This document shows, piece by piece, positions 60,072-64,000 of a stretch of DNA of 64,000 nt. Source of the DNA: Octopus vulgaris (lineage: Eukaryota); the NCBI GenBank assembly GCA_951406725.2, contig OX597821.1, positions 74,772,001 to 74,836,000 on the forward strand. Reading direction: 5' to 3'. The notes below the pieces were generated by a model. It did no database searches, was not told where the DNA came from, and worked only from the letters and a program-made list of their open reading frames with translations. The position numbers and the translations under genes are program-made. The stretch's first letter is position 1, and each line of letters begins with the position of its first letter.

Positions 60072-60359
60072 CTATATATAAATAATATATATATATATAT
60101 ATATATATATATATATATATATATATATATATATATATATATATATATATATATATATATATATATATATATATATATATATATATATAACATAAGGGAC
60201 TAAAGCCATCTGAATATGGCTAGGGACAGAGCAGGGTGGTGGCTGTGTTACAGTTGCATTTAGCCCCGGGCGAACATCAACGCCGCCAGATAGGCTTGAC
60301 ACCATCACGGCGTCCTCTATCCTGCAAAGGGAGATAATTCCCCGATGAAGCGGAAACCA

Positions 60360-60404
60360 CACACGGACCTAGGTTTCAAGGCGTTTGCCTATTATCAACG
60401 TATG
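60360..60404 (-). ncRNA. Type I hammerhead ribozyme, U3-A8 variant, copy 1
   Basis: Reverse complement of catacg-TTGATAA-taggc-aaac-gcctt-GAAAC-ctag-GTC-cgtgtg. Confidence 0.78.
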
Positions 60405-60718
60405 GTAGGCACCCGCTTCCTCGACGAACCACTCACTCTGCAGGATATTTATATAGATTTTCAACCAAAATACATTTGCTGATTTCGAAAATCTGTTCGA
60501 CGGCAATAATAATTCTCTAAATGAGATATAGACAGTAACTGCTCCATAACATAAGGGACTAAAGCCATCTGAATATGGCTAGGGACAGGGCAGGGTGGTG
60601 GGGGTGTTACTGTTGCATTTAGCCTCAGGCGAACATCAACGTCGCCAGATAGGCTTGACACCATCACGGCGTCCTCTATCCCGCAAAGGGAGATAATTCC
60701 CCGATGAAGCGGAAACCA

Positions 60719-60763
60719 CACACGGACCTAGGTTTCAAGGCGTTTGCCTATTATCAACGTATG
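60719..60763 (-). ncRNA. Type I hammerhead ribozyme, U3-A8 variant, copy 2
   Basis: Identical 45-mer, 359 bp from copy 1. Confidence 0.78.
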
Positions 60764-61226
60764 GTAGGCACCCGCTTCCTCGACGAACCACTCACTCTGC
60801 AGGATATTTATATAGATTTTTCAAGCAAAATACATTTGCTGATTTCGAAAATCTGTTCGACAGCAATAATAATTCTCTAAATGAGATATAGACAGTAACT
60901 GCTCCATAACATAAGGGACTAAAGCCATCTGAATATGGCTAGGGACAGGGCAGGGTGGTGGGGGTGTTACTGTTGCATTTAGCCCCAGGCGAACATCATG
61001 TATATATATATATACGTATAGATGTAAATATGTACATATACGTATAAATATACATACATACGATGGCTTTAGTCCCTTATGTTATGGAGCAGTTACTGTC
61101 TATATCTCATTTAGAGAATTATTATTGCTGTCGAACAGATTTTCGAAATCAGCAAATGTATTTTGCTTGAAAATCTATATAAATATCCTGCAGAGTTAGT
61201 GGTTCGTCGAGGAAGCGGGTGCCTAC

Positions 61227-61271
61227 CATACGTTGATAATAGGCAAACGCCTTGAAACCTAGGTCCGTGTG
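61227..61271 (+). ncRNA. Type I hammerhead ribozyme, U3-A8 variant, copy 3
   Basis: Stem I catacg/cgtgtg; stem II aggc/gcct; stem III ac/gt with ctag loop; predicted cleavage after C61265. Confidence 0.78.
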
Positions 61272-61585
61272 TGGTTTCCGCTTCATCGGGGAATTATCTC
61301 CCTTTGCAGGATAGAGGACGCCGTGATGGTGTCAAGCCTATCTGGCGACGTTGATGTTCGCCTGGGGCTAAATGCAACAGTAACACCCCCACCACCCTGC
61401 CCTGTCCCTAGCCATATTCAGATGGCTTTAGTCCCTTATGTTATGGAGCAGTTACTGTCTATATCTCATTTAGAGAATTATTATTGCTGTCGAACAGATT
61501 TTCGAAATCAGCAAATGTATTTTGCTTGAAAATCTATATAAATATCCTGCAGAGTGAGTGGTTCGTCGAGGAAGCGGGTGCCTAC

Positions 61586-61630
61586 CATACGTTGATAATA
61601 GGCAAACGCCTTGAAACCTAGGTCCGTGTG
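61586..61630 (+). ncRNA. Type I hammerhead ribozyme, U3-A8 variant, copy 4
   Basis: Identical 45-mer; predicted cleavage after C61624. Confidence 0.78.
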
Positions 61631-64000
61631 TGGTTTCCGCTTCATCGGGGAATTATCTCCCTTTGCAGGATAGAGGACGCCGTGATGGTGTCAAGCCTAT
61701 CTGGCGACGTTGATGTATATATATATACCCTCCATCAGTTGTTGGCTGTTTTTATAGTCTCGCATTTCGAGCATTTAATAACAATATACGCTTTAGATAA
61801 AACAGCTGTTCCCGCAAAGCAAATTAAAGAAAATTTGGGACTTTGCGAGGGTCAAAATAGGTAACACAAACAGGACAGTGAAAACAAACAGGAAGGGCTG
61901 CTAAGCTTAAACGAGGTTGTGGTGGCGAACGCGTAAATCAAGCTAGGACAGGAGACATTAAAGAATGCCTTCTTCCTTTTTCCAGCTACAACGTGTGTGT
62001 GTGTGTGTATGGGAACTCAAACGTATACGGCCAGATATTTTATCCTACGCTCGGACAAACTACTCTATTTGGCAATTATGTTTCCGTGGCCAGCAAAAAT
62101 GGGATAGGCTGACCAATATCTGATCTTGTTAGTTACGCATCGAAGAAATTACATGCAACTTCTCTTTGCGGTGAGATTATTCGTTTAAAGCTATTTAGAA
62201 TGAATAAAAAATAGGACTTATTTAAACAAATTAGTCTAATTTCCGTAACAGAGAATGCGCTGAGAACGTAGATTAAAGTGGCGGTAACAACTTTATTAAA
62301 TTTTCACTATCAATCAAAGACTGAGTTAATGTATTTTGAATAAATTAAATCACGATGCAAGCGCATGTACTGTGCTGCTGTTTAGAATTAGCGAGAGCAG
62401 CTTACGGATTAATTGAATAAATAATTATACTTGATAATAGGATTTGAGTTCACGTTCTTGTGTTGGTGAAAGACATACATATGTATGATTCTTCTTTGAC
62501 TTTCATTTACGTTCTTCAAAAGAGGATTCACGCCGGCCGCTAACAAAGCGACTACACATTTTTTATATGTATGTATGCGTATATATGTACATGTATGTAT
62601 GTGTGTATTCTTGCATGTATGTACGTATTTATTGATATATATATATGTCTGTGTCTGTCTATCTATCTATCTATCTATCTATCTATCTATCTATCTATCT
62701 ATCTATCTATCTATCTATCTATCTATCTATCTATCTATCTATCTATTTATCTATCTATCTATCTATCTATATCTATATCTATATCTATATCTATATCTAT
62801 ATCTATATCTATATATATATATATGTGTGTGTATATATCCGTCTGTCTGTATGTCTCTATCTATCCGACTGTCCGTTCGTCCGTCTGTCCGTCTGTCTGC
62901 CATTCTGTCTTTCTGTCTGCCTGTCCATCTGCTATCTATTTATTCATTTCATGTGGCTCAAATTTAATCAGCCGTAACGGGAACTAGCTGGATGCTGAGT
63001 TGTTGATCGGATACAAAACTAATAGTAACTTGAAAGAAAAATTAGACATTGCAAAGCTTGCCCTGGTTCTAGATATTGGTCAATCAATCTATATTTTGGC
63101 TGAGACTTTACAGGTAACAGGTGAAAGTCGATTACCTGGAAGAGCATATACCCGAAATTCTGTTTGCTATTAGTGATATGTATTATCACTCTCTCTCCCC
63201 ACTCTATCTATCTATCAATTTTCTCTCTCTCCTTAAATATATATATATATATATATATATATATACTTAAACATATATATATATGCATCTCGATATGTAT
63301 TAAGTGTCTCTCTCTCTCTCTCTCTCTCTATCTCTATATATATATATATATATATATATATATATAGACACATACACACACGCATATACATACATACATA
63401 TATATATATATATATATATATATATATATATATATATATATATATGTATGTATATGTATGTATATATATATATATATGTATACATCTGTATCCCGTTCTC
63501 TCTCTCTCTCTATGAGTATTTGTATATATTTGAATGTATGTGTATGTACGTGTGCGTTTGTGTGTATATGTGTGTGTAGTATATATATATGTACGTATAT
63601 GCATGCGCGTGCGGCGCATAAGTCAGTGTGATCCTGTATTCGTTCATATTCGTTCACTTCCTCTTCATATATATATATATATATGTCAGGATAAAAGGGA
63701 GAGAGGTACATTTGAATTGAAGAAAATCAGCGGGGGATCCCTTAATGGAGACATCCTCAAAATGTGTGGTTGTATATGTCTGATTTATATAGCCCTAATA
63801 TCTATACTTTATCCTGTGTGGGTCTATAAACGGTGTATTTAATTGAAGTTCATTACCCGTAGTCGGGGCTGTTTTTATGAACTCCCTACGTCTACCTGGA
63901 CAAAATTAAGCACGTCAAATACTGTCTAATTATATATTGATATGAATTTATTTCCTAAAGAGCTGTTTAAATTTCTCCTTTAGACTGTGAGAAAACATAT

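Follow-up and report, generated by a model that had tools for sequence, protein, structure and literature searches.

In the stretch of Octopus vulgaris DNA analysed here (64,000 nt, hereafter the window), two blocks of one tandem repeat face each other head to head in TA-rich sequence. The original prediction explained this layout by twin-priming 5' inversion of a multimeric RNA. What is being repeated here, how did it come to be inserted in this form, and is the locus typical of its family? As detailed below, the array is one damaged member of a young repeat family, present in many copies, whose 359-base unit carries a hammerhead motif. We consider it probable that it represents one insertion of a non-coding hammerhead retrozyme by the RT/GIY-YIG protein of a Penelope-like element (PLE), the template most likely being a 359-nt circle. 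The parts of the locus are as follows, with phases counted on the 359-nt unit from position 61062 (phase 1).

60073..60186, plus strand: (TA)n target, the inferred primer of the left arm (compare the (TA)3 at 188/201 outer 3' ends of the family)
60187..60998, minus strand: left arm, 812 nt or 2.26 units; 3' end at phase 24, the short start site of the family, and 5' end at phase 291
60187..60545, minus strand: outer left unit; of its 8 private substitutions, 6 lie at phases 287-340
60360..60405, minus strand: type I hammerhead motif, copy 1, core start at 60398, supported by covariation
60719..60764, minus strand: type I hammerhead motif, copy 2, core start at 60757
60999..61061, plus strand: spacer, 63 nt, a family C tail inverted relative to the copy right of the array
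61062..61716, plus strand: right arm, 655 nt or 1.82 units, running from phase 1 (5') to an atypical 3' end at phase 296
61226..61271, plus strand: type I hammerhead motif, copy 3, U3-A8 core, predicted cut after 61265
61377..61458, plus strand: 8-bp long-range stem, conserved, with a hairpin and the short start site (61444) inside it
61445..61488, plus strand: internal copy of the 40-44 nt "tail" (phases 25-68), its end being the usual second-arm start
61585..61630, plus strand: type I hammerhead motif, copy 4, core start at 61592
61717..61728, plus strand: 12 nt of TA at the right junction
61727..61990, minus strand: family C, an older dispersed repeat; identity to its relatives about 89-90%; cut about 140 nt before its TA-rich tail

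The geometry from which twin priming had been deduced is largely as described. The two TGATGT hexamers lie at 61711-61716 and at 60998-60993 (minus), and the arms (812 + 655 nt) stand head to head across the 63-bp spacer, sharing a TGATGT overlap of 6 nt; joined, they measure 1461 nt, or 4.07 units, where a concatemer of about 1460 nt with this overlap had been forecast. Between the leftmost unit and its neighbour there are 10 differences in 359 sites, as estimated. The surroundings fit less well: the right flank does consist of TA, but for just 12 nt before a truncated older repeat begins, and the 63-nt spacer, although of the expected length, is not random TA-rich filler, its core being sequence of that older repeat.

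The repeat unit is 359 nt long, non-coding and dispersed (1337 candidates, of which 40 were scored), its length lying in the range of about 170-400 nt that characterises metazoan non-LTR retrozymes. The longest ORF inside the array encodes 67 aa, and the array lacks an RT plus GIY-YIG ORF; such ORFs lie outside it, elsewhere in the genome. A type I hammerhead motif is found in all four unit copies that cover the region, in the orientation that had been called ribozyme-sense. Copy 3 has a U.U at the base of stem II and a 2-bp stem III with a palindromic loop. Hammerheads with a U3-A8 core are reportedly active, a point for which our literature search returned no supporting paper. The 3-8 pair is kept in 210/210 turns read (U-A 94, U-G 45, C-G 71) and in 18/18 aligned sequences, sister family included, and the stems also covary; conservation of the 3-8 pair through compensatory change implies that cleavage matters. 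For the U3 subfamilies, 283 exact hammerhead matches are present in the genome. In the predicted fold, the unit RNA is strongly self-paired (z -4.97, equalled by 0/100 shuffles), and fold prediction on the isolated motif as a monomer did not return the full hammerhead. Searching the array against Rfam gave 0 matches at the gathering threshold and no ribozyme family at E<=10, where solely AT-rich, miRNA-type chance matches appeared. Twister and HDV-like readings, weighed by eye, were dropped on finding the hammerhead motif. By its covarying motif, the repeat is an animal retrozyme with a type I hammerhead, for which self-cleavage is putative. Like the metazoan non-LTR retrozymes described in the available text of Cervera and de la Pena 2020 (PMC7229834), it combines a tandem unit of about 350 nt (350-390 in mussel), one type I hammerhead per unit and strong self-pairing, and it shares with axolotl HHR_Amex2 from the same text a 2-bp stem III plus tetraloop and the U.U at the base of stem II. 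It differs from them in its core, which in Octopus is mostly U3-A8 or U3-G8, or C3-G8 with C at position 4.

The family was surveyed at 119 loci, two of which were cut by the fetched stretch and dropped, leaving 117 complete. Also removed were 7 of the first 46 loci (duplicates) and one 75%-identity block in L012; L141, which reaches the edge of its fetched stretch, was counted as single-armed. Inversions were found at 84 of the 117 loci, all of them head to head. Their 5' (inner) ends are scattered in position, whereas the outer 3' ends are fixed at two sites. At 78 of the 84 inverted loci, one arm ends at the short site and the other at the tail site, which lies 40-44 nt further on at phases 64-68, on (TA)n. 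Two canonical ends are present in 80 inverted loci and are mixed in 78 of these (p = 5e-21 versus 50:50), the one-short-one-tail counts by way of selection being 22/25, 31/31 and 25/28. (TA)3 lies within 12 nt of 188 of the 201 outer 3' ends; no poly(A) was seen at insertion ends, and target-site duplications are unreadable within (TA)n. The central joints comprise 43 overlaps of 1-13 nt, 22 blunt joints, 15 fills of 1-14 nt, one overlap of 28 nt and three gaps of more than 14 nt. Arms have a median length of 365 nt and the longest arrays run to 6-7 or more turns (L140, L141, L168). Other loci had been expected to show inversions, (TA)n targets and random start phases; the first two were found, and the outer starts proved fixed. 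Fixed termini had been taken in advance as the mark of a DNA element, but termini fixed as one short and one tail end (78/84) indicate a PLE instead.

Each insertion appears to derive from one template variant. Sequences diverge by 0.57% within an arm, by 0.90% between the arms of a locus and by 6.59% between loci, and discordance at 50 polymorphic sites is 112/12,148 (0.92%) versus 37% if random, comparisons with fewer than 40-60 shared sites being excluded. Among 51 fully covered loci, 26 haplotypes were distinguished. At the studied locus, a phase-188 variant found in just 1/38 other loci is common to all four turns that cover this phase. That arms and turns carry one variant supports a single RT event, probably of the rolling-circle kind, as the original prediction had proposed in preference to satellite expansion. 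The accompanying suggestion of a heterogeneous linear multimer finds no support: the outer left unit's 8 private changes are absent from all 38 other loci, and no second source was found for their cluster, which is unique in the genome. Minor variants in 19 multi-turn loci comprise 84 singletons and 4 shared between turns (4/88), with 0 shared at the studied locus; in L043 and L198 turns have minor variants in common. In just 40/60 loci does an arm match the opposite arm of its own locus best or equally best, and the same haplotype need not mean the same molecule, two transcripts of one source locus looking alike. These data bear on whether the array arose as a DNA-level satellite, as a TIR element or through misassembly. 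Tandem units and long inverted repeats are indeed present, and consensus errors could explain the 8 private changes, which lie next to a long TA run. Yet the loci are dispersed, their inner ends scattered and their variation star-like, with no nested variants in neighbouring units; the same geometry recurs at 84 loci, and the left-arm/spacer joint is matched, without any difference and at single-copy depth, by a 57-nt contig of run X1. This contig has 28-29 letters on each side, below our 31-letter threshold, and X1 may be the source sample. Contigs of X1, X8, X4, X6 and X7 gave no piece across the site and no readable empty allele, short contigs in repeats being unable to prove absence. All three origins are thus extremely improbable.

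How, then, did two head-to-head arms arise? In L1-type twin priming, the start of one arm coincides with the stop of the other and varies in position, first priming uses a poly(A) 3' end, and the target site is duplicated; it is said to have been described by Ostertag and Kazazian in 2001. The retrozyme insertions resemble it in their head-to-head arms, outward 3' ends and microhomology at the joint, and at the studied locus in having ends in register. They differ in that priming does not use poly(A), both starts are internal and fixed, and the arms cover the same sequence rather than consecutive parts. Phase continuity within 6 nt was observed at 6/84 loci versus 4.2 expected (p = 0.21), and cut-offs of 3, 6, 10 and 20 nt gave 4, 6, 10 and 19 of 84 (p = 0.10-0.34). 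As a rule for the family, L1-type twin priming is therefore very unlikely: of the mechanism first put forward, the head-to-head layout and RNA-mediated target priming in (TA)n stand, whereas its generality does not, continuity being at chance and the termini fixed at two sites. A second published model, proposed for PLEs in the available text of PMC3846280, is fold-back self-priming, in which the inverted arm is a hairpin copy of the first. It would account for the identical haplotype of both arms, and a few loci do have near-palindromic centres (L135, L152, L165, L191). However, inner ends fall within 5, 15 and 30 nt of the same phase in 4, 10 and 18 of 84 loci, with no enrichment over the permutation expectation of 2.7, 8.0 and 15.0 (p = 0.23-0.29); there is no correlation between arm lengths (rho 0.11, p = 0.33), the inner ends at the studied locus are 69 nt apart, and the one-short-one-tail rule is left unaccounted for. 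We regard fold-back as highly improbable.

The closest parallel is provided by EN+ PLEs of the Neptune/Naiad type (available text of Craig 2021, PMC8557442; Frangieh 2024, PMC11167929; Arkhipova 2013, PMC3846280), which share with the retrozyme insertions the (TA)n target, the inverted 5'-truncated arm, the one-end tail, two internal RT starts and partial tandems. PLE copies are described there as carrying an inverted 5'-truncated copy and a 30-40 bp tail at one end (PMC8557442), both strands being cut and extended, with two internal RT starts that bound the tail and a predicted dimer (PMC11167929); non-autonomous, multicopy head-to-tail PLE derivatives (MRC1) are also on record (PMC8557442, PMC11167929, PMC3846280). 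In Octopus itself, autonomous PLEs with an RT together with a GIY-YIG domain at the C-terminus (Neptune-like) have a (TA)n target and a 29-33 nt tail, which sits on a single arm in 3/3 loci with ends on both strands (L059, L220, L231). The one-sided tail of the family's insertions is the signature of PLEs, these Neptune-like ones included. Unlike them, the retrozyme array has no ORF over 67 aa, a tail of 40-44 nt, multi-turn arms (at least 7 turns in the longest) and no sequence in common with the autonomous PLEs sampled. No autonomous PLE with the retrozyme 3' sequence was found among 30 of the 148 listed GIY-YIG matches and 20 longer stretches, which overlap partly with those 30 sites, out of 6136 candidates, and BLAST and a profile of the hammerhead-to-tail region matched nothing but separate retrozyme relatives near PLE loci.

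Whether the PLE machinery would have copied a circle or a linear RNA can be addressed from the arms. In 128/168 cases, the arm is too long for a cleaved linear monomer; arms run through the ribozyme cut site, and inner ends lie near it in 3/168 (5.1 expected). The same two-ended PLE insertion could instead have drawn on a linear multimer left uncleaved, the transcript of a genomic array that is long and homogeneous. According to the available text of PMC11167929, an Anolis PLE used uncleaved RNA in vitro, its own hammerhead being dispensable, which makes a linear read-through multimer a live template. Arrays of 6-7 or more turns do exist (L140, L141, L168), and L043 and L198 have variants shared between turns. 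However, the 26 haplotypes, each homogeneous within its locus, would demand a monomer bottleneck per sweep; between-turn sharing is limited to 4/88 variants; most arms are short (median 365 nt), and linear copying would erode arrays; the compensatory conservation of the 3-8 pair implies that cleavage matters; and retrozyme circles have been shown in mussel, coral and axolotl. On balance, a linear template is rather unlikely and a 359-nt circle is preferred.

Within its own family, the studied locus is an outlier, being one of the 6 exceptions among 84 to the one-short-one-tail rule. The left-arm 3' end, at the short site joined to TA, has 533 exact matches in the genome, whereas the right-arm 3' end joined to TA occurs once. 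On the twin-priming reading, the right end would therefore not be a product of normal initiation. The right junction cuts the neighbouring family C repeat at a point with 1 occurrence versus 559 exact matches that continue past it, and the right end may thus be a deletion scar. The spacer core recurs exactly at 6 other genome places, each within a family C repeat, while its last 32 nt have no second exact genome copy and a sole 1-mismatch match at control level; for the whole spacer, no exact donor was found elsewhere in the genome. The spacer is the very segment missing from the adjoining family C copy, in inverted orientation. It is also the only long foreign spacer among the 84 inverted loci, the other two gaps of more than 14 nt having, by eye, the appearance of diverged unit sequence. 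Could it be original target DNA left in place, between two nicks 63 bp apart or two separate insertions? Its resemblance to an aged, microsatellite-rich repeat tail without an exact donor, and its being the sole spacer of its kind, would agree with this. We nevertheless consider this improbable, since the segment is inverted and missing from the adjoining family C copy, that copy is cut uniquely 12 nt from the array, and two independent insertions would not have the near-private phase-188 variant in common.

Strict L1-type twin priming may still apply to this one locus, the two arms being consecutive parts of one 1461-nt concatemer: the second DNA end would invade the RNA being copied, immediately in front of the first RT, which would displace 6 nt and then stop. 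The orientation fits, as do the 6-nt overlap, the variant common to both arms and a right end at a site with a single use genome-wide, the short site having 533 matches; a given atypical end would be in register by chance in about 3.6% of cases. However, at none of the cut-offs tested does the family show an excess of continuity, just one of the 4 atypical outer ends agrees in phase with the inner end of the partner arm (an outcome with a chance probability of about 14%) and the locus was picked for this match, the right junction cuts family C uniquely so that the end may be a scar, and primer-RNA complementarity at the right end is just 1-2 nt. We judge this reading credible but somewhat short of an even chance.

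The insertion would then proceed as follows. A PLE protein would nick a TA-rich site on both strands and, from the two DNA ends, reverse-transcribe a single RNA variant, probably in the form of a 359-nt circle. A PLE dimer may dock on the conserved 3' stem, placing two RT sites to start 40-44 nt apart; each RT would run an independent length round the template, and end joining would fuse the two cDNA ends. In our model the docking structure would be the 8-bp long-range stem, which folds alone with z -1.3 and has one compensatory A-U to G-C change in 4/18 sequences. At the studied locus, the event was likely messy and hit the TA-rich tail of an older family C repeat, of which about 140 nt would have been lost and 63 nt of tail copied, inverted, into the central joint. 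The abnormal start of the second arm would reflect either later trimming or, slightly less probably than not, priming in phase with the first cDNA after it had stalled. This explanation does not say where the 12 nt of TA at the right junction came from.

Part of this scheme has precedents. PMC7229834 proposes that RT on a circle yields tandem cDNA with PLEs as mobilisers, and its main text does not contain the word "inverted". Li, Clavereau and Pollet 2026 (bioRxiv 10.64898/2026.07.22.740005) likewise treat retrozymes as non-autonomous PLE derivatives, reaching the same mobiliser conclusion from co-distribution and pLTR phylogeny, whereas ours comes from insertion geometry and haplotype clonality; in the available text "tail" is absent and "inverted" confined to a reference. 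The literature on retrozymes, octopus, Penelope and twin priming, in the open text covered (subscription papers, supplements, Repbase and Dfam lay outside its scope), held no account of the 359-nt family or of the one-short-one-tail statistic. The PLE transposition cycle, including the making of tails and inverted arms, is called undefined in the available text of PMC8557442. The hundreds of near-identical, haplotype-tagged insertions of this young family give numbers that any model has to reproduce: each event pairs a short start with a tail start, the two arms vary in length independently and are clonal, and copying continues past the cut site. The studied locus, a scarred example, adds little alone. 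The family also supplies, for in vitro use, a 359-nt template with two mapped start sites and, in the same genome, candidate Neptune-like enzymes with open frames, for example the family at L078 with its frame of 781 aa.

We tentatively suggest, as a possibility we would rate at about one in three, that a PLE dimer carries out paired rolling-circle RT on a single circular RNA molecule, with one start per target strand, 40-44 nt apart and flanking the conserved stem, the trailing RT displacing the leading cDNA. If this is true, one mechanism would produce the PLE tail, the inverted arm and the clonal multi-turn retrozyme arrays, the 78/80 one-short-one-tail rule would be its genomic signature, and the studied locus would represent a less common outcome, a second RT that starts in phase with the stalled first one.

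At 60187-61716, a 359-nt unit is repeated in two tandem arrays that face in opposite directions, 63 nt apart. Phase, the position within the unit, was numbered with phase 1 at 61062:

60187-60998, minus strand: left arm, phase 291 to 24
61062-61716, plus strand: right arm, phase 1 to 296

The two TGATGT hexamers noted in the original prediction are present at 60998-60993 (minus) and 61711-61716, the joined arms make one stretch of 1461 nt (about 1460 nt had been expected), and the leftmost unit differs from its neighbour at 10 of 359 sites, as had been estimated. No open reading frame longer than 67 aa was found in the array, and an Rfam search of it returned zero ribozyme matches. 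A motif scan located a type I hammerhead four times, on the strand that had been proposed as ribozyme-sense. Its stem I is 6 bp long, the core reads UUGAUAA, U.U stands at the base of stem II, and GAAA is present; stem III has 2 bp and carries a palindromic loop, and cleavage is predicted at GUC. Over 210 turns of the unit, the core reads TTGATAA (94), TTGATGA (44), CCGATGA (37), CCGACGA (34) or TTGACGA (1), so that hammerhead positions 3 and 8 pair in every turn.

We surveyed 119 loci of the family: 39 from a BLAST-type search (7 duplicates removed), 40 picked by the short end defined below and 40 by the hammerhead. Two were cut by the edge of the fetched stretch, leaving 117 for counts. Inversions are found at 84 of these, every one head to head, and a single orientation at 33. 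The outer ends are of two kinds: short ones at phase 17-24 and tail ones at phase 52-69. Of 201 outer ends, 188 adjoin (TA)n. Of the features that the original prediction proposed to look for at other loci, inversions and (TA)n targets were recovered; random start phases were not, the outer ends falling into two fixed classes. One short and one tail end are combined in 78 of the 84 inversions (22/25, 31/31 and 25/28 by selection subset); two short ends occur in 2 and an atypical end in 4. The inner ends are scattered in phase, and the joints show small or zero overlap. Strict twin priming, in which the second arm starts where the first stops, fails as a family rule: phase continuity within 6 nt is seen in 6 of 84 inversions vs 4.2 expected (p = 0.21), i.e. 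at chance level. A fold-back origin of the inverted arm is also disfavoured, palindromic centres being at chance level and arm lengths uncorrelated. Templated-looking repeats or extra short segments were observed at the 5' junction of locus L002 and at junctions of L027, L200, L208, L210 and L211, which suggests frequent template jumps in end joining.

A sister family (4694 candidates, 40 scored) retains the U3-A8 core, has G-C as the basal pair of stem II, differs in loop III, and includes one array of about 10 turns:

L077:6100-6362 and L080-L104 (stretches from the same genome), and G000:C4:13620759-13624379 (genome contig): 355-nt sister retrozyme family, with U3-A8 hammerhead, inverted arms and the same two 3' ends

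On 18 chosen sequences from the 359-nt and 355-nt families, 95% of cells pair (29-47% in slid controls) and 4 of 31 pairs show two-sided changes, figures that are supportive and carry no probability value since the structure was drawn from the same 18 related sequences. An 8-bp stem around the short start site contains one of the covarying pairs. Folding of the unit gives a strong z of -4.97, against -3.07 for the opposite strand. The 359-nt unit, with its hammerhead predicted from sequence, matches the metazoan retrozymes described in PMC7229834. A third retrozyme relative lies at L231:5577-5813. In the window, a profile search identified old, decayed relatives at 6681-6819 and 14602-15027, the latter a head-to-head inversion, and at 59060-59180 a CTGATGA...CGAAA motif resembles, by eye, the minimal hammerhead of Penelope-like elements (PLEs).

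Turns within one arm diverge by 0.57% (196 pairs), arms by 0.90% (191 pairs) and loci by 6.59% (52,106 pairs). At 50 polymorphic sites, turns of the same locus disagree in 0.92% of comparisons (background 0.71%; random expectation 37%), and 26 haplotypes occur among 51 fully covered loci. The arms and turns of a locus thus carry one template variant, in agreement with a single reverse-transcription event. At 19 multi-turn loci, 4 minor variants are shared and 84 occur as singletons; this speaks against growth by stepwise duplication of DNA and bears out the view that the array is no satellite expansion. The original prediction is confirmed as to layout and partly supported in its interpretation: the evidence favours a single event and does not support twin priming as the general mechanism. 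In the window array, one haplotype, including a near-private variant, runs across all turns. The outer left unit bears 8 private changes, the second highest load of 79 turns, in a cluster found nowhere else in the genome; they may reflect local mutagenesis or consensus error, and they indicate no second known template, contrary to the caveat that this unit might betray a heterogeneous linear multimer.

Of 168 arms, 128 run past the ribozyme cut site, where inner ends are not concentrated. This means that the RNA copied was either circular or an uncleaved multimer. The sequences make a circular RNA moderately probable. Three observations weigh against a circle and would agree with an uncleaved linear multimer: the use of uncleaved RNA by a PLE in vitro (PMC11167929), long arrays in the genome that could be linear sources, and two loci where variants are shared between turns. 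At L198, both arms begin at the short site, and the outer turns have two variants in common that the inner turns lack; two copies made from one heterogeneous linear template would show this pattern.

Insertions of PLEs are described as targeting (TA)n, with a 5'-truncated copy in inverted orientation and a tail of 30-40 bp at a single end (PMC8557442, PMC3846280); with a purified PLE, both strands are cut and extended, and two internal start sites bound the tail (PMC11167929). The octopus genome carries elements with reverse transcriptase and C-terminal GIY-YIG, which are Neptune-like because their linker is of the CxxxxCxxC type (criterion from PMC8557442). They terminate at (TA)n, some with a tail of 29-33 nt and some lacking it; where ends were seen on both strands, at three loci, only one arm has the tail. 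Among the PLE loci sampled in the genome, no sequence common to the retrozyme and autonomous PLEs was found, so we infer the PLE partner from its footprint alone. A 2026 preprint (bioRxiv 10.64898/2026.07.22.740005) links retrozymes and PLEs via phylogeny. Judged by its sequence, the 359-nt element adds a new member to the metazoan retrozymes, and it inserts like a non-autonomous PLE. The present analysis contributes figures for how often one short and one tail end are combined, evidence that arms and turns are clonal, and negative outcomes for continuity and fold-back. Literature searches turned up no published account of these; the family may already be listed in supplementary data or repeat databases. 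A young Neptune-like PLE (L053/L078, L216-L223), with many 781-aa open frames and several copies about 98% alike, is a candidate active enzyme. A second Neptune-like PLE, at L231:1824-4980, sits in (TA)n as a clean head-to-head insert with a tail on one of its arms.

The window locus itself is atypical. The left end of the array is canonical, with 533 exact matches in the genome (2.8 Gb, 227 contigs), and the right end is unique. Beyond it lies a truncated repeat:

61727-61990, minus strand: copy of family C, an older dispersed repeat with relatives at L105-L131

This copy is cut 12 nt beyond the right end of the array, a cut seen once vs 559 copies continuing. The TA-rich segment between the arms has the predicted 63 nt but is not plain filler: its core is family C tail sequence, exact at 6 other sites. 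The cut copy lacks this segment, and the sequence between the arms runs in the opposite orientation to that copy. The last bases of the left cDNA end resemble the family C sequence preceding the tail. In the most economical reading, the insertion would have struck the TA-rich tail of a family C copy with loss of about 140 nt of target DNA, and 63 nt of target would have been copied onto the left cDNA end before its fusion with the right arm. The right arm could have been primed in register, i.e. by true twin priming, which we rate as somewhat short of an even chance, or it could have been trimmed from a normal tail end. One short contig supports the left-arm/spacer joint but stays below the bridging rule; no empty allele was seen among short contigs, which in repeats cannot show absence. 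Family C is abundant and older, has an internal TA-rich segment and, at L108, a head-to-head joint; it may be another PLE-mobilised element.

Elsewhere in the window, a SINE-like repeat occurs at 7099-7464, 16549-16916 and 59650-59984, its first 184-188 nt tandemly duplicated at all three, and 4917-5377 is a 42-nt minisatellite of 11 copies with 93% matches.
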